A stretch of DNA of 64,000 bases from Octopus vulgaris (Eukaryota): the NCBI GenBank assembly GCA_951406725.2, contig OX597831.1, positions 19,716,001 through 19,780,000 of the forward strand, written 5' to 3'. The translations under genes were made by a program, and so were the position numbers. Numbering within the stretch: position 1 is the stretch's first letter; each line of letters begins with the position of its first letter. This document shows positions 3,905 to 63,652 of this stretch, piece by piece. Below the pieces are notes generated by a model. It ran no database searches. It saw nothing but the letters and a program-made list of their open reading frames with translations, and had not been told where the DNA came from.

Positions 3905-6900
3905 ACTTGCACATGCAAGTGCTACCAGTTAAAAGCTCCGTATATCGGAAGCTAGCAAGTTTATGGGGTCATCAGGAGAGAATGCGCGCCGTTTCGGGGC
4001 CTACCTCTCGACGGCATCAATGCGCACCGGCCCCCTCACTGATATGAGGCCCCGCTTGCTAGATCAGCTGGTTATGATGAACTCAATATACTTCTAGCCA
4101 TCGCTCATCGTCTCTTTTTAACCAAATCCAGTGGCTAGCCTTCTCCACTGTAGATTGGATATCAGTCATGGTGGTATTGACTTTACGATGAGTTAGGCCT
4201 AACGATAACAACAGTCGTCTCACGCTGTGTCCTACAAACCCTCTACATCCGACTTCGATAGGAAAATGTTCCGCTTTCCAGCCTGCGTCTTCATATTCCT
4301 CGAGGAGGTTTTCATAACGGTTTAATTTTCGAGCTCGAGCGGCGTCCATATTATCTTCGTGAGGAACCGTTAGCTCGACTATATTTAAAACTTTCTTTCT
4401 TTCACACCACATCAAAATATCTGGTTTTTTCGAAACTGGGATGGGAAAGAAAACCTGGCACCCAGGTAAATCTGCAGTTACCTCCCAATAGTCGTTCCAC
4501 TTTTCATTTTTCTCAGGAAGTTTCTTGGTCTTCTTCTTGAAACGGATCTGCTGACCTGGTCGCACGAAGGTAATGAACTCTCTTGATGGTACTTTTAACG
4601 ATTTTTCCTCAGTGTTGTTGAGATGAATTTGATTCTTTATAGCATTGAAGATAACCTTAAGGACCAAGTTGTGCCTCCATGTGTACCTGTTCAATGCTAA
4701 CGAACAGTTGGAAAGAATATGTTTTAGTGTACCGACTTTTCCACATTTGCAGACGTCATTCTCTAAGACGTTCCATCTTACTAGATTCGTAGGTGATGGC
4801 AAAACATCATAAGATGAACGAATCAGGAAACTCAGCCGAGATGTTGTCCACTTCCACATCTCATCCCAACTTATCTTCCTCTCAACAACATGTTCTTCCC
4901 ATCTCGTCATCTGACCTTGATGAACACATCGGATCAAATGAAGCTCTCTTCTCTCTGCTTCTCTTGTTTTGACGCTGTTGCTAACAACAGATCTGCGTTC
5001 ACACGGCATCATGCTTGCAAACGGTCTGAACTGATCCGCGCCAAAACCAAATCCTTTCCGATGGTTCTGCGTTGCTCCCACCATATCTCTGTGTGTAAGA
5101 GAAGACAAGATGTTGTCAGTTTCTGCTTCTGCTTTCCACTTCCTGGCTGTTTTCACCTCTGGTGGGTTACGCCTGATTTCCATATCCTTCGATTCTCTCA
5201 GCATCATGACCGTCCGTATCTTCCCCAACTTATATATTTCGACTATTGAGGCTATTGGTAACTGCAACGAACCTCTTTTACGATAAAGAGCTGAGCTGTT
5301 CAACATACGAGGTAGACCTAGCCACTTTCTAATGAACACATTACATTTTTGTTCGATCTTTTCAACTCGTGACAATGCTACTTCGTATATTAAAAGTGGC
5401 CACGCAAGTCGCGGGTACAGGCCGAACTGCAAGCACCAAATTTTATATTTACCTGGTAACTTCGAAACATCAATCGCTGATAACCCAGCCTCGGCCTGTT
5501 TCATAATTTCAATCCCACGACTTCTATCTGACAATGTTCCAGCGTATACTCGTCCCAAGCTCTTGACGGGCTCTTCCTTGACTGTTGGAATGCTTTCTTC
5601 CGATATTCGAAATTTAAATTCTTTCTGCACTCCCTTAACAAATGTCAGACTACGCGACTTTTTTGCTCTAAATCGCATCCTTGACCACCTTACACGTTCG
5701 TCTAATCTCAAAAGGGCATTCTGCATGATTTGTTTATCTGTAGCTAGAAGTGTCACGTCATCCATGAAGGCTTTCTTAGGCGATTGTACATGGGCGATTT
5801 GTTCCGAAAAATCTACACCTTTCAAAATCAACTCCATGACTAAGATAAACCACGTGACAGATATTGTACAGCCAGCAGCAATGCCAACCTCCAATCGGTG
5901 CCAATTTGTTGTAAAACTTCCAGTTGTAAACCTCATTTCGAAACTTTCATAGTACATCCTCATTATTTTGATCACTTTGTCAGGAATGTGGAAGTGGTCC
6001 ATGGCTGTTATTAGTAATTTGTGTGGCACTGAACCATACGCGTTAGCTAGGTCGAGCCATACCACGTTCAGACTTTTCTTGTTCTGTTTGGCATCCTGAA
6101 TCGCTTTCCAAATCGAAAAACAGTGTTCAACGCATCCAGGGATCCCGGGGATTCCGGCCTTTTGAACAGATTCATCAACATATCCGTTACTCTGTAAATA
6201 TGTCACTGTTCTCCTCGACAGAATTCCCATAAAGATCTTGCCTTCCACATTCAATAAGGATATCGGCCTAAACTGTTTTATGGTCTTTGCATTGGCCTCT
6301 TTCGGCAGGTATATACCTTCTGCCTTACACCAATCCTCTACTATAGTCTCCTCGCGCCACAGTTGTCGGATTAGGACGAAGAGCTTCTTTCGCAGACGAT
6401 TGCAGTATTTGTAGACTTTATATGAGACGCCATCACCTCCTGGGGCACTCTTCGCTCTAGCTTTTCTTACGAAGTCATTCACCTCTCTCTCCCTGATGTC
6501 CCCAATCTGGAATTCGATATCAGGTCCTGAGAGATGATTTAGCCCATGTAGAGATGGCAGCGGCTGATTACGGTGCGGATCGCTGTAGGTTTCCTTGATA
6601 TGAGCATCCAATTCTTCTTTAGTGCACGATAAAGTACCACTCTTCGGCTCAGTGAACAGCTTCTTAGTAAACCCGTACGGGTCCTTCAGAAACTGCCCTC
6701 GAGTCCTTTTACTTTCTTTTCGACGCTCATATCGGCGAATATGTCGTTGCACATAACGACATTTCCTCTTCAAATCGTTATACAGCAACGCAAGGCCAGG
6801 TTTCTCATCTAGTGCAGCACATCTCCATCTCTTTCTTAAGTCGGACTTTTCCTTCCTCAACTGCTGCATTTTTCTGATCCTCCTGCTTGGTCCACACTTT

Positions 6901-7010
6901 CCTTTCTCTAGTCGGATATTCTCTTTTATTCCAAATAAATCTCTTGCTACATCGTATATTGAGCTTGATAATTTTCCCAGTTTTTCCACTGTAGAGCCTG
7001 TCATTTTATA
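3905..7010 (-). mobile_element. HERO-type (R2 superfamily) non-LTR retrotransposon, 5'-truncated
   Basis: 973-aa ORF plus a GC-rich, self-complementary ~170-nt 3' UTR; no N-terminal zinc finger; in-frame stop 8 codons upstream of the Met. Confidence 0.85.
4083..7004 (-). CDS. Reverse transcriptase + CCHC knuckle + restriction-like endonuclease
   Basis: SAPGGDG, FRPISLLNVEGKIF, WLDLANAYGSVPH, GIAAGCTIS, KAFMDD; CKCG...LKHILSNC...RYTWRHN; KPDI...IVELTVPHE...KLNRY...PIEVGCRG. Confidence 0.93.
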   Translation of the reverse strand: MTGSTVEKLGKLSSSIYDVARDLFGIKENIRLEKGKCGPSRRIRKMQQLRKEKSDLRKRWRCAALDEKPGLALLYNDLKRKCRYVQRHIRRYERRKESKRTRGQFLKDPYGFTKKLFTEPKSGTLSCTKEELDAHIKETYSDPHRNQPLPSLHGLNHLSGPDIEFQIGDIREREVNDFVRKARAKSAPGGDGVSYKVYKYCNRLRKKLFVLIRQLWREETIVEDWCKAEGIYLPKEANAKTIKQFRPISLLNVEGKIFMGILSRRTVTYLQSNGYVDESVQKAGIPGIPGCVEHCFSIWKAIQDAKQNKKSLNVVWLDLANAYGSVPHKLLITAMDHFHIPDKVIKIMRMYYESFEMRFTTGSFTTNWHRLEVGIAAGCTISVTWFILVMELILKGVDFSEQIAHVQSPKKAFMDDVTLLATDKQIMQNALLRLDERVRWSRMRFRAKKSRSLTFVKGVQKEFKFRISEESIPTVKEEPVKSLGRVYAGTLSDRSRGIEIMKQAEAGLSAIDVSKLPGKYKIWCLQFGLYPRLAWPLLIYEVALSRVEKIEQKCNVFIRKWLGLPRMLNSSALYRKRGSLQLPIASIVEIYKLGKIRTVMMLRESKDMEIRRNPPEVKTARKWKAEAETDNILSSLTHRDMVGATQNHRKGFGFGADQFRPFASMMPCERRSVVSNSVKTREAERRELHLIRCVHQGQMTRWEEHVVERKISWDEMWKWTTSRLSFLIRSSYDVLPSPTNLVRWNVLENDVCKCGKVGTLKHILSNCSLALNRYTWRHNLVLKVIFNAIKNQIHLNNTEEKSLKVPSREFITFVRPGQQIRFKKKTKKLPEKNEKWNDYWEVTADLPGCQVFFPIPVSKKPDILMWCERKKVLNIVELTVPHEDNMDAARARKLNRYENLLEEYEDAGWKAEHFPIEVGCRGFVGHSVRRLLLSLGLTHRKVNTTMTDIQSTVEKASHWIWLKRDDERWLEVY

Positions 7011-7799
7011 AAGAGTCCGACAAGTTTACTATTCTTACTATTTTGTCGTTAAATTGACGAAGTTTTGTTTTATTTGGTTCAACAACGATAGCGTTGTTGG
7101 TTAAATATTTCCATTCACTGGTTCGCTCGATTTTAAACGGTTTCACTAGCAAAAGAGTTTGTATGTTTGCAACAAAATAAAAGATTTCGTTTCTAAAAAG
7201 AGGCTTTTCTATTTTGTAGACTAAAAACACGCACATGCACACACATCTCACTTATTCATGCATACATGCGTGTGTGTCACATGTATAAATGTACATATAT
7301 ATATATATATTATTTATTGAACGCCCCTCGTATATACATATAAAGAGGTCACATATGTGTGGCGAAAGATTTCCAGAAAATAAACACACGATGAAATAAT
7401 AACAATGATGAACGAGTGAAGAACGAATATATAGGTCGTGTTTATTTGACAAGAAAAACAACATTACCGTTATATAATTTCTCCATTATTTTGTGTACAT
7501 CTTTCAACCTGACGCAAATGTCAGGCAGCATTTGAAATATTAGTTACTGAAACTGCCAAATAAACAATGCACCGTGTAGTAATAAGAGAATATTTTGTTT
7601 CCGAGAAAATTGCAATAGATTCAAGGAAAATATTTAATTGAATACAGCAGTTGCGAAAATAGAAACAGGTCGCTAGTGAAAAGCATTAACAAGTGACTAG
7701 AACGGGGCTGGTTTAACGTTGGCGAGTGCCTAATGGGAAAGGGTCAAAATGGGAAATGTAACAATCGTCAAGTCATTCGCATGTATGTGATAGAAGGAT

Positions 7800-8000: not shown

Positions 8001-8404
8001 ATCATAGAGTCTTACATTTTAGATTTTAAATGCTTGAATTAGACCAAAGTTAATGAAATAAGATTTAATTTGTATTTCTGGAGGAAGACTAAGATATTCA
8101 TTTCTCAGATTATTTCGTTCGTTTCAATTTATCTGAATCTTTCCCAGCGTTATTTGAATAAACACGGAAAGTATTTTTATTGGAGTTTTTAATGCACTTT
8201 TTGTATCTCTAAGCTTCATTTACAACTTTTGTTTATTGTTTTTGAGACTTAAATAAATTTTTCTTCTTTTCAAACAAATCGCCATTAAGTATCAAGTGGA
8301 AAAGGAAAATAGATTTATCTTACAACCCAATACATAAAAACTGTCTCTTGATAAACTATTGTAACTTCGCAGTAAAATATTACATCAACACGCATACACA
8401 CACT

Positions 8405-8698
8405 ACTTCAATGTTGCTGTTTGTTCCTTCTCGAGCCATGCTGACATAGACCGATTTTCTTGGCGTATAGGTTCCCCTCCTGGACGGGACACCGGTCCGT
8501 CGCAGGTGAGCTGCAAGATGCAGGAGGAAAGAGTGAGAGAAAGTTGTGGCGAAAGAGTCAGCAGAAGTTCGCTATTACCTTCTGCCGGAGCAGCGTGGAA
8601 CTTAGGTGTTTCGCTCATAAACACACACATCGCCCGGTCTAAGATTTGAATCCGCGAGCCCTCGACCACGAATCCACTGCTCTAACTACTAAGCCATG
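8405..8698 (-). mobile_element. tRNA-derived SINE
   Basis: Minus strand begins tggcttagtagttagagcagtggattcgtgg...ggattcaaatc (A/B boxes); body shared with 62627-62815, different tail. Confidence 0.8.
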
Positions 8699-22339: not shown

Positions 22340-22390
22340 AGCTTCCTGATGATTTCTCTTGAATGAAACAGTTCTAGTCCTGTAGAAGCT
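22340..22390 (+). ncRNA. Type I hammerhead ribozyme
   Basis: AGCUUC-CUGAUGA-UUUC UCUU GAAU-GAAA-CAG UUCUAGUC CUG-UA/GAAGCU: 6-bp stem I, 4-bp stem III, canonical core. Confidence 0.85.
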
Positions 22391-22473
22391 CCTTCTATAT
22401 AATAAATTAATTTTACTCTGCTATGTATTGAGTACCTTATTTACTGTGGTTAACCCTGAATCAACCCGGGACC

Positions 22474-22517
<44 letters not shown>

Positions 22518-39842: not shown

Positions 39843-39845
<3 letters not shown>

Positions 39846-41243
39846 GAGAAGCTGTTTAATCCGACCAGGGAGAAGCTGTTTAACCCGACCAGGGAGAAGC
39901 TGTTTAACTCAGCTCCTACAACACTATGACTGGGTGCTGAAACGACTGCTCAACCACTCAAATGTGGAAGTGATATATCTCGACTTTGCAAAGGCCTTTG
40001 ATAAAGTCGATCATAGAATGATATGTCACAAACTGCGTGATCTAAACATAGTTGGAAAACTGGGAGAATGGCTTCATGACTTTCTGAAGGATAGAAGTCA
40101 GTTGGTAGTAGCCAATGGGGCCACTTCCATTAACACACAAATAGTGAGCGGTGTTCCGCAGGGCACTGTTCTGGGACCACTACTGTTCATAATGGCCCTC
40201 TCAGACATGCCCTCAGCCACGCAGAGAGCCACGATCACAAGTTATGCAGATGATACAAAAGTTTCACAGGCAATACAGAACCCTGAGGACACTATACGCC
40301 TGCAATGTGAGCTGGACGAAATATACAAGTGGGCTGAAAAGAATAGCATGCAGTTCAATGCTGGAAAGTTTCAAGCTTTATACTATCAGCATGCAAAACT
40401 GAATGCAATACCCAATGAATACACTGGACCCGGAGGGATTGCAATCCCAGAGGCACAATCAGTGCGTGACCTGGGTATTCACATGAGTGATGACGCAACC
40501 TTTCATGTACTTGTTGCTAAACTGACAATGAAATGTAGACGGCTGGCTGGATGGATTCTTAGAACCTTTAGAACAAGAGAACAAGAAACCATGATGGTCC
40601 TCTGGAAGACACTTGTCCTAAGCCACTTTGACTATTGCTCTCAGCTATGGTCACCATCCAGTGTCAAGTTGATCACAGAACTTGAGGCGATCCAACGAAG
40701 CTACACAAAGAAGATAGCCTCTATGCAGAATGTAAGCTACTGGGAAAGACTCAAGAGATTAAAGCTCTATTCCCTGGAGCGTAGGCGAGAAAGATATGCC
40801 ATAATATACATCTGGAAGATCCTGGAAGGCCTTGTCCCAGACTTTGGCATCGAGAGTCACACAAATGCCAGAACCGGACGCCACTGTGTAGTACCAAGGA
40901 CTCCAAATTTGCCATCAAGATGTAGGACAAGATATTGTGATAGCCTGGGCTTCAGAGGCCCACGGCTCTTCAATATCCTCCCGAAGAACCTGAGGGACCT
41001 GCATGGTGTGGATGCGGATGTCTTTAAAGTAGGACTGGATCTCTTCCTGTCAGGTGTCCCGGATGAACCAACTTCACGGCAGGAGGTGCAGATGAGAGCA
41101 GCTGCATCGAACTCTCTCATGCACCAGATGGCGTTTGCCAACAAACATCCGTGAGGTAAAACCGTGTAGCAAACCAAATGGCGGTGGCCCAGCATGGCCA
41201 CAGCTCATTAGCTGAAACTGGAAAAATCAAAATCAAAATCAAA

Positions 41244-41247: not shown

Positions 41248-41330
<83 letters not shown>

Positions 41331-41362
41331 TTTATTTAAGGTAGCAGAAAATTCAACAAAAC

Positions 41363-41400
41363 CTGTTACTCTGAGTTTCACGTTCCCGTTCGTCGGACAG
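41363..41400 (-). ncRNA. Hammerhead motif (CCGACGA core variant)
   Basis: Inverted copy of 41407-41444. Confidence 0.7.
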
Positions 41401-41406
41401 GAAAAA

Positions 41407-41444
41407 CTGTCCGACGAACGGGAACGTGAAACTCAGAGTAACAG
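41407..41444 (+). ncRNA. Hammerhead motif (CCGACGA core variant)
   Basis: CUGU-CCGACGA-ACG GGAA CGU-GAAACU CAG AGUA/ACAG. Confidence 0.7.
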
Positions 41445-41551
41445 GTTTTGTTGAATTTTCTGCTGCTTTAAATAAAGCATATTACTCTACTCCACCACTG
41501 GTATTTGAGTACTCTTTTTTCCACTTTGTTTCACATTTATGTGTTTACTCC

Positions 41552-41619
<68 letters not shown>

Positions 41620-41627
<8 letters not shown>

Positions 41628-44681: not shown

Positions 44682-46005
44682 CTAAGAGGAGGGGGCTGTG
44701 TTGAGTCCGTGTGGGGTATTGGTTTGTAGAGTGAAGATGAAACGTTGCTCCAAGTGGAGCCTGGATTGTGGAAGACCGTTGTGTGGGGCGAGACCAAACA
44801 CAGAGATGTCATCGGGGGAATGGCTGGCCGAGCGGAAGTGACGTGCGACGGGAGAAAGGGACCGTAGGCGAACATCCCTCAGATGTTCGGCGAGTCGGTC
44901 TGACAACCGGCGTCCGGTCTGTCCTATATACAGCATTCCGCAGAGGTTGCATTTAATACAGTATATGAGGCCAGACGAAGTGCACGTAAAAGAATGTCTG
45001 ATACGTACAGTTCGCTGGTTGGAGCCGGTGACAGCAGTGGTGTTGGTGATGAAGGGGCAGGTGTTGCAGCGGGATCTAGAGCACGGGAATTATCCGTGTG
45101 GGGCTGAGGGGGAAGAAGAGAGGGTTCTATAGACCAGGAGGTCGCGTAGATTCCGGGCTCGTTTGAAGGAGGACAGGGGTAGGTTGGGGAAAATGGGGCG
45201 TGTCGTGGGATCGCGCTGGAGGCGACGGAAGGCACGTAGTATCTTCCGAGGAAGGGGTAGAGTAGAGGGGTGGAAAATGAGGGGAAAGGGGGTGCGGTTG
45301 GGGGTGTGAAAGGAAGGAGAAAGGGTGGTGGTGCGGTCGATGCGATGGGCGCGGGCGAGGGCATTTGAGACTAGTGTAGGTGGGTATCCTCGGTGCCTGA
45401 ACAGGCGGGCCAGGTATTGAGATTTGGTCTCGAAATTCTTGTCGCGGCTGCACAAGCATCGGAGGCGGAGGAACTGGGAGTAAGGGATGGCCCGTTTGGT
45501 GTGGAAGGGGTGGGAGGAGGAGAAGTTGAGATAGAGGTGGGAATCCGTGGGTTTAAAGAAGGCGGAGGTGGTGAGAGAGTGGGAGGGGTGGTCGATGCTG
45601 AGAGAGATATCAAGGAAGTTGACAGAGGTGTTGGAGATGGTTGAAGTGAATTGTAGAGAGGGGTGGAAGTTGGAGAGGAAAGAGATGAATTGGCAGAGAT
45701 GTTCGCAGGAAAGGGAGGTGGCGCCTATGCAGTCGTCTATATAGCGACCGTATAGTTCGGGGGTCGGCCCGGAGAATTGGGAGAATACTTGGGCCTCAAT
45801 GTGGCCAAGAATGAGATTGGCGAAATTGGGGACCATTCTCGTTCCCATCGCGACCCCGGACAGCTGCTGGTAAGTTTCCCCGGCGAACGTGAAACAGTTG
45901 AGGGTGAGGACGAGCTCTGCCAGGCGGAGAAGGGTGGGGGTGCTGGCGGTGGGGTCGGGACGACGGTCGAGGAAGTGTTGGAGAGCTAAGAGACCGTCGT
46001 TGTGA
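44682..46005 (-). mobile_element. GC-rich Neptune-like PLE, 5'-truncated at (TA)n
   Basis: [13 protein letters not shown]...[50 protein letters not shown]; GIY-YIG LYIGQTGRRLSDRLAEH...PVARHF. Confidence 0.92.
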
Positions 46006-46192
46006 TATGGATATATATATATATAGATATAGATATATACATATACATATAGATGTAGATATATACATATAGATATAGATATATACATATATATATACAT
46101 ATACATATATATATATGTATATAGATATATTTATGGATATATATAAATATATGGATATATATATGTTTATATATATATATATATACATATAC

Positions 46193-50814: not shown

Positions 50815-50868
<54 letters not shown>

Positions 50869-50875
50869 AAATATT

Positions 50876-51012
50876 GAATTTCTAAATCTCTCATAGAGAC
50901 ATGTACGGTGGTGGGGCGATAGAATGGTTGCATACTGTCAATCTAATAAGAACGTGACAGTAGGGGGTACACCACCGCTGTATAGCCCTAGGAAGCATCG
51001 AACGCCTCCTGA
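50876..51012. mobile_element. Structured (TA)n-adjacent repeat (single arm of the 8980-9180 family)
   Basis: High identity to 8980-9088. Confidence 0.75.
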
Positions 51013-51073
51013 TGGCTTTGACACATTTTCCCCTCTGACCTTATATACATATACGAAGGGGAGACAAACACCC

Positions 51074-51159
51074 CCGGCTGCCGGAACTGCATCTAGGGAC
51101 ACCGTGTTTCAGGATCGTTGTCCTTCATCGGCCTAGAGTAGCAGACACCGGTCAGCCGG
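51074..51159 (-). ncRNA. Type I hammerhead with extended stem I
   Basis: CCGGCUG.CCGG..CUGC..UCUAGG-CCGAUGA-AGGA CAACGA UCCU-GAAACA CGG UGUC/CCUAGA.GCAG..CCGGCAGCCGG. Confidence 0.8.
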
Positions 51160-51223
51160 TGATATTTGCCTCTACTTCGTAATTGTATATATCTATATTC
51201 AGTGAAGTCTATTCACTGATTAT

Positions 51224-51258
<35 letters not shown>

Positions 51259-63319: not shown

Positions 63320-63390
<71 letters not shown>

Positions 63391-63490
63391 GGAGTAAACA
63401 CATAAATGTGAAACAAAGTGGAAAAAAAGAGTACTCAAATACCAGTGGTAGAGTAATATGCTCTATTTAAAGCAGCAGAAAATTCAACAA

Positions 63491-63534
63491 AATCTGTTAC
63501 TCTGAGTTTCTCGTTGCCGTTCATCAGACAGATT
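63491..63534 (-). ncRNA. Type I hammerhead
   Basis: Inverted copy of 63542-63585. Confidence 0.8.
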
Positions 63535-63541
63535 CTAGCAA

Positions 63542-63585
63542 AATCTGTCTGATGAACGGCAACGAGAAACTCAGAGTAACAGATT
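63542..63585 (+). ncRNA. Type I hammerhead
   Basis: AAUCUGU-CUGAUGA-ACG GCAA CGA-GAAACU CAG AGUA/ACAGAUU; canonical core, 7-bp stem I. Confidence 0.8.
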
Positions 63586-63614
63586 TTGTTGAATTTTCTG
63601 CTGCTTTAAATAAA

Positions 63615-63652
<38 letters not shown>

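Follow-up and report, generated by a model that had tools for sequence, protein, structure and literature searches.

The locus examined here raises the question of what a short palindrome with a hammerhead motif in each arm represents, and how its two arms came to lie head to head within a (TA)n repeat. It is located in a window of 64,000 nucleotides from Octopus vulgaris (C18, 19716001-19780000), which is the whole stretch of DNA analysed, and an earlier note had described it as one of two copies of a recurrent 227-bp element. Pairwise comparison within the window bears out the kinship: a single family has inserted twice, each time into (TA)n, and the two copies are oppositely oriented and share about 87% identity. 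The long arm of each ends, as had been noted, at ...TTACTCCGG, with an inverted short arm of about 74-76 bp. Both copies are genuine, but the unit is neither self-contained nor fixed in size. Their equal length of 227 bp is a coincidence that arises from spacers of 6 nt versus 13 nt, from a duplication of 5 nt in copy 1 and from the choice of boundary.

As detailed below, each palindrome is built from the pLTR, the end with the hammerhead, of a Hydra-type Penelope-like retrotransposon (PLE). Positions on the element are counted from +1, the first C of CTGTC ahead of the hammerhead core. Copy 1 is bordered on the left by the (TA)n target repeat (41248..41326; read from the sequence, ends approximate) and on the right by a second stretch of it (41554..41623, end approximate). 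Its tail-less arm (41327..41400, minus strand) comprises pLTR positions +1 to +71 plus 3 nt common with the TA repeat, carries a hammerhead motif at 41400-41363 (minus strand, read from the sequence) and matches the 3' end of the full-length copy L128 at 8389-8464. The tail-less arm stops at +1 and the tailed arm begins at -4; the head-to-head junction between them (41401..41406) consists of a single G followed by positions -4..0 of the tailed arm. On the plus strand follow pLTR +1 to +71 (41407..41477) and the PLE tail (41478..41553), which measures 76 nt via the 5-nt duplication as compared to 71 nt in the parent. The minimal type-I hammerhead motif of this arm (41407..41444, plus strand, read from the sequence) has the older-subfamily core CCGACGA (U4C) and a predicted cut between 41440 and 41441. 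In copy 2, the tailed arm (63389..63531, minus strand) contains the tail and the pLTR back to near +1, where it stops, with the younger-subfamily core CTGATGA; the tail-less arm (63532..63615, plus strand) covers -12 to +71 and thereby starts exactly at what we term the 5'-end cliff of the family. The U4C exchange, at window positions 41412 and 41395, belongs to older subfamilies and is yet widespread, with C in 60 of 83 tailed arms.

Every arm of the two copies has a minimal type-I hammerhead motif that can be read from the sequence; a search of the window against Rfam at the gathering score gave no hammerhead match. The predicted fold is one long hairpin per copy (-141.7 and -135.6 kcal/mol), and according to this model a hammerhead could not form inside the full-length hairpin of either palindrome. 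The dsRNA that the earlier note expected from transcribed palindromes is a folding prediction only.

Several other elements share the window. Copy 1 with its (TA)n lies directly after the end of the 3' part of a CR1-like RT (39844-41154, plus strand), which ends in a short AAAATC repeat. A PLE-type RT fragment of another clade, with YIDD and thumb-like motifs, adjoins (TA)n at 45090-46130 (minus strand), and a (TA)n-flanked insert at 50866-51228 carries a third hammerhead-like motif, CCGATGA...GAAA, near 51131 (minus strand), possibly from another PLE family. An apparently intact open frame of 980 codons at 4083-7025 (minus strand) presumably belongs to a non-LTR RT whose C-terminal part is restriction-like. 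Between 25553 and 32974 lies a 36-bp tandem array of approximately 207 copies with 79% matches. Both of its strands have stretches of 250-370 open codons with 12-residue repeats, and it represents either a satellite or a decayed coding repeat.

The supposed parent PLE exists, as full-length copies were found in the same genome. It was reached by stepping upstream from the arm into RT and endonuclease frames, followed by a protein search, in which 150 of 11,260 candidates were scored and many proved near-identical with open frames of 727 codons. Homologues of the 711-aa protein number 1,074 at E<=1e-20 among 7,999 scored. In L128, the counterpart of the long arm found in the window immediately precedes the ORF (5026-5167), the tail-less element end is located at 8389-8464, and an inverted truncated partner terminates in the tail; the same plan of pLTR plus tail, ORF, tail-less 3' end and inverted partner is found in L126/127, L129, L132 and L133. 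The parent unit measures 3,355 bp with a tail of 71 nt and about 1.1 kb beyond the ORF. In full-length copies the tail continues into the ORF leader, with the ATG about 70 nt after the tail. The long arm of a palindrome is the sequence directly 5' of the ORF, and the short arm is the normal 3' end of the element. In a very young subfamily (e.g., L126/L127, L129 and L133), the 727-codon frames are numerous and near-identical, and the inverted arms, kilobases in length, are 99.8-99.9% identical; judged from these sequences the subfamily is likely still active.

The single 711-aa ORF, linked to the repeat, combines an RT with a GIY-YIG-type endonuclease. It carries RWK at residue 37, DKT at 113 and YRDD at 344, together with CxCx5C, CxxC and CxH at 562, 667 and 695; the endonuclease core GVVY...YTG is found at 580, and the core at 580-600 is devoid of Cys. 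A GNKY is read at residue 51, the Hydra trait being that an N-terminal GxKF/Y is not conserved. Pfam and PDB sequence searches with the ORF yielded no match. The motifs point to a Hydra-type placement, since RWK, DKT, CxCx5C, CxxC and CxH are given as marks of the Hydra clade in the available text of PMC8557442, together with a size usually below 3 kb and insertion into (TA)n. The unit of 3,355 bp exceeds this size; (TA)n is the target here as well, although the patterns used for counting ends themselves require TA. Further traits of endonuclease-bearing (EN+) PLEs are present, i.e., partial-tandem pLTRs, an inverted 5'-truncated partner, a one-end tail and a hammerhead motif in the pLTR, the last resembling the Hydra rows of File S2 in PMC8557442 as far as this source was available.

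According to the accessible part of Craig et al. 2021 (PMC8557442), Hydra-clade PLEs including Hydra-1_Obim share with the present family the RT with C-terminal GIY-YIG-type domain and its motifs, the pLTR hammerhead, the (TA)n target, the inverted 5'-truncated partner and the one-end tail. The differences are a tail of 71 nt here versus 30-40 nt in Hydra PLEs and the 3,355-bp unit with its approximately 1.1 kb past the ORF. The hammerhead row of Hydra-1_Obim, the octopus Hydra family, differs from ours in the same material, and the present family is therefore another one. An inverted truncated partner with a tail at one end is the standard PLE form in the portions of PMC8557442 and PMC3846280 at hand, and the former declares the origin of tandem and inverted PLE structures open. 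The palindromes themselves are a known form of PLE insertion, the family is new, and the reading as a mini-element is not supported.

Genome-wide counts and the mapping of a sample of ends show how the two arms are arranged in general. Exact-pattern counts in the 2.8-Gb genome gave at least 4,918 tailed ends, at least 4,279 tail-less ends and 68 tail-to-ORF junctions, while reversed control patterns had no match genome-wide. The presence of a twin within the window is unremarkable, as 4,918 exact ends in 2.8 Gb correspond to one per approximately 570 kb. Arms were studied at the first 100 of the 4,918 tailed ends, on C1. In 54 cases, an outward-facing exact tail-less end lies no more than 12 kb away; the distances are 93-7,821 bp, with 24 of the 54 paired lengths at 200-239 bp. 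An adjacent inverted arm is present at 71 tailed ends; none was detected at 24, and 5 extend beyond 900 bp, and both of these classes, the single-arm and the run-off loci, are excluded from the arm-pair counts. With end positions taken from BLAST, where an error of a few bases is possible, 65 of the 71 inverted arms stop at +69..+78. The junctions overlap by 1-16 nt in 44 cases, are blunt in 5 and contain filler in 22, and both hammerheads are complete in 30 of the 71. On the element, a constant 71 nt separates the two outer ends; the inner ends vary in position, and most are joined at overlaps of 1-16 nt.

This has consequences for the fold-back point near stem I that the earlier note had proposed. 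BLAST mapping of these arms shows that the points are not constant, in accordance with the range of paired lengths, but cluster at a hot spot near stem I. Junctions do cluster just 5' of stem I, with both arms stopping within -13..0 in 19 of the 71 two-arm copies; what was taken for a constant is a hot spot. A uniform size was initially apparent from a palindromic query (40 best matches) and was rejected as query bias, since tail-only and positional samples vary widely.

We consider it highly probable that the palindromes are head-to-head insertions of the Hydra-type PLE, each 5'-truncated in both arms and likely formed from two cDNAs primed on both cut strands of (TA)n. The RT-endonuclease would nick both strands of the target, by analogy with an anole PLE in vitro. 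Two internal positions, +71 and +142, would serve as starts of reverse transcription and yield the tail-less and the tailed arm from one RNA source. The template RNA would begin at -12, where hammerhead stem I has its base, so that the cDNAs would run off with maximum lengths of 83 and 154 nt; two such run-off cDNAs could anneal via the near-palindrome around CTAG to give the common 200-240 bp form. The recurring variants of the junction centre are explained by this near-palindrome. Long and tandem copies would require a template without an end at this position, be it a read-through tandem, a circle or strand transfer.

The assumed template end is based on the distribution of arm ends. Tailed arms stop at a rate of 0.089 per nt at -12..-6 versus 0.0015 at -100..-21, a drop of about 60-fold, and tail-less arms at 0.11 versus 0.007, in a zone whose microhomology to (TA)n and to itself inflates the local counts. 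An initiator-like YYANWYY is present at -12, a short and common motif that corresponds to the initiator consensus YYANWYY; no TATA box is conserved at -30 in this family. The cliff suggests run-off from the 5' end of a capped RNA. It was predicted that ORF-bearing copies also stop at -12, and this prediction failed: 36 of 54 tailed arms stop in -20..0 versus none of 33 ORF-bearing copies, drawn from 40 of the 68 tail-to-ORF junctions (p=3e-11). The absence of such stops argues against a sequence barrier, and also against one linear template for all copies, so that a second template must be assumed. Whether run-off at a template end at -12 explains the short cDNAs, with an endless template for the long copies, seems to us evenly balanced on the basis of junction sequences. 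The more specific version, in which most insertions would be strong-stop-like run-off products of a capped mRNA starting at the foot of stem I, with full-length and tandem copies from an endless template, is held tentatively and falls slightly below that balance. If it is true, the RNA start would be mapped by thousands of junctions across the genome, and these would reveal two templates in the PLE cycle. Our literature search, which covered few subscription papers, found neither a 5'-end cliff at stem I nor an extra G described for PLE insertions; nor is the cliff described for Hydra PLEs in the available text of PMC8557442.

A second family in the window serves as a replicate. It bears a hammerhead and targets (TA)n, with a copy at 22340-22481 (plus strand) and an upstream part from about 22130. 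Its exact tail has 3,970 matches genome-wide, and the head-to-head plan of tailed and tail-less arms recurs: of 30 loci examined, 24 have an inverted tail-less arm. Tailed arms stop at -1..+3 of stem I in 13 of the 30, placing the cliff at the first base of stem I, and TATAAA is found at -29. By hand count, the single base between (TA)n and this first base is G in 35 of 48 cases; a further junction set, also counted by hand, has G in 8 of 23 and T, i.e., the repeat itself, in 11 of 23. Read-through copies have T or C at the G position. The G could also arise by one fold-back step of the cDNA on stem I. In the family of our two palindromes, an extra G was seen in 12 of 100 in one listing and 4 of 100 in another, at no single position. 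From the accessible part of PMC11702581 it is known that an extra G marks the 5' junctions of capped full-length L1 insertions.

The strongest competitor, which we regard as rather unlikely, keeps the two-cDNA origin and explains the cliff otherwise, either as a structural stop where the cDNA closes the stem I hairpin or as a later collapse to the CTAG centre. The extended stem I is predicted to close precisely at -12, the cliff of the second family is the first base of stem I, and the first family lacks a clear extra G, all of which would suit a structural stop. Such a stop should act on a second pass too, but none of the 33 ORF-bearing copies ends there. A collapse is at odds with single-arm copies that are joined directly to (TA)n and also end at the cliff, and a deletion adds no G. 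A 3' splice site at the cliff is not favoured: YAG|C is found in both families, and a Drosophila virilis intron ends at helix I according to the portion of PMC4209133 available, but the arms of the first family retain 4-6 bases 5' of the AG, and the listed arms have no common upstream exon. Nor do the arm ends appear to be determined by hammerhead cleavage. The cut, at +33..+37, was ruled out as a candidate template end, since just 2 tailed arms out of 95 and none of the 71 tail-less ones stop there.

Turning to the arms themselves, the earlier note had considered a fold-back of one template at stem I. In this scenario one cDNA folds back near stem I, self-primes its second strand and then joins the target; we judge it improbable. 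It would account for the hot spot at the self-complementary CTAG, for the perfect centres of several copies and for the alleles shared by the arms, and self-priming was inferred for palindromes at inverted PLE junctions in the part of PMC3846280 accessible. However, a folded-back copy cannot exceed its own template, yet in 30 of the 71 pairs it is the tail-less arm that extends further 5' (the tailed arm in 17; within 3 nt of each other in 24), for which reason two cDNAs fit better. In 7 copies there is almost no overlap between the arms, the tailed arm being little more than tail, and in L128 the tail-less arm measures approximately 4.4 kb versus 2.8 kb for the tailed one. Fold-back would need frequent later one-sided deletions, but the 23 youngest copies are equally variable in arm reach. 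What does hold of the former proposal is that the palindrome was formed at insertion from one source, as the arms share alleles and length class; the long or short class of the two arms is concordant (7/1/3/60, p=7e-7). Both cDNAs likely share one source at insertion, although shared alleles could reflect the subfamily active at that time rather than one RNA.

Very improbable in our view is a fixed non-autonomous palindromic unit, MITE- or retrozyme-like, whose arms are kept alike by gene conversion. A MITE or fold-back DNA element has a uniform length and fixed terminal inverted repeats; the present copies span 93-7,821 bp with asymmetric ends and a retroelement parent. Non-LTR retrozymes form head-to-tail tandem arrays of a short unit, and here head-to-head pairs of variable length are found. 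The 40 best matches to the palindromic query do look uniform, and nearly half of the exact pairs (24 of 54) share one size class, but the uniformity of the former is the query bias mentioned above. Junction types are mixed within subfamilies. A short-arm-specific allele at +59 (8 of 96 loci) was discarded, as it is confined to the query-biased set.

Arm divergence was determined for 96 palindromes with at least 40 shared columns, 28 of 124 distinct loci being dropped as shorter, and amounts to 2.8% within a copy versus 6.4% between copies. In 48 of 74 palindromes the two arms carry one and the same six-site haplotype (shuffle mean 9.6, maximum 21), 22 of the 96 having been dropped for lacking one of the six sites. 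The haplotype of the 41.3-kb copy occurs in both arms of 13 of the 74 scored palindromes and that of the 63.5-kb copy in 8. The variants that had been called copy-specific, CCGACGA/GGAA in the two arms of the 41.3-kb copy and CTGATGA/GCAA in those of the 63.5-kb copy, are consequently subfamily alleles. Conversion would be supported by 11 non-diagnostic variants that are present in both arms, 3 of them at a single locus only. Against it, variants in one arm only occur at 141 of 5,695 sites, i.e., 0.0248 versus 0.0250 expected without conversion, where the expectation is taken from the single-copy tail; for the unbiased 45 loci the values are 0.0207 versus 0.0261. Together with the varying lengths, this speaks against the self-contained unit with arm homogenisation that the earlier note had offered as an alternative, and later conversion between arms is likely little or none.

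An assembly or sequencing artefact from chimeric fold-back reads has a negligible probability: long perfect palindromes can be artefacts, and no contig of the independent runs spans copy 1, as such contigs cannot span a palindrome, but old mutations distinguish the arms, two biological sites define the outer ends, and short-arm/long-arm joints at varied positions appear in short-read contigs from three out of four runs (X1, X4 and X16), run X12 having none among the matches listed.

The two-cDNA reading is best compared with Poseidon_Ac (PAc), an anole PLE studied in vitro, for which the available text of Frangieh et al. 2024 (PMC11167929) reports that both target strands are cut and extended, that two RT starts define the tail and that hammerhead cleavage is not needed. 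The likeness lies in two RT starts bracketing the tail, in the use of both target strands and in an AT-rich target. PAc belongs to another clade, and its ORF starts within the hammerhead, in contrast to the ATG about 70 nt past the tail here; neither a pairing of tailed and tail-less arms per insertion nor run-off products are part of the report as far as it was available. Judged from the accessible portions, the inverted-pLTR Penelope of Adineta vaga (PMC3846280) shares head-to-head repeats, palindromic junctions, an optional tail and microhomology joins with our family, and the opposite-strand dual min-HHRs of Schistosoma (PMC4209133) are minimal hammerhead pairs 100-700 bp apart, as here. 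Both sources propose self-priming or circular templates in these parts, whereas the arm lengths observed here favour two cDNAs. Animal non-LTR retrozymes are likewise short non-coding hammerhead sequences derived from PLE pLTRs, but form tandem arrays in the part of 10.64898/2026.07.22.740005 available; the present copies are inverted pairs of variable length without a sign of spread as a unit. In twin priming of L1 (PMC11702581, accessible part), both target ends prime reverse transcription and inner ends are joined by microhomology, as here. L1 twin-primed copies represent adjacent, mostly non-overlapping RNA, while the present arms duplicate one region from fixed starts. The available portions of PMC2377424, PMC13282606 and 10.64898/2026.07.22.740005 contain nothing further on the junctions.

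For the biology of PLEs, the family offers thousands of junctions together with near-identical intact copies. It provides in vivo support for the two-start, both-strand chemistry known in vitro from one other PLE, and the data oppose single-strand self-priming as well as conversion between arms. The cliff predicts an RNA start at the foot of stem I and a second, endless template. The insertions have also scattered thousands of perfect hairpins of 70-80 bp over the octopus genome, which may be dsRNA substrates if they are transcribed.
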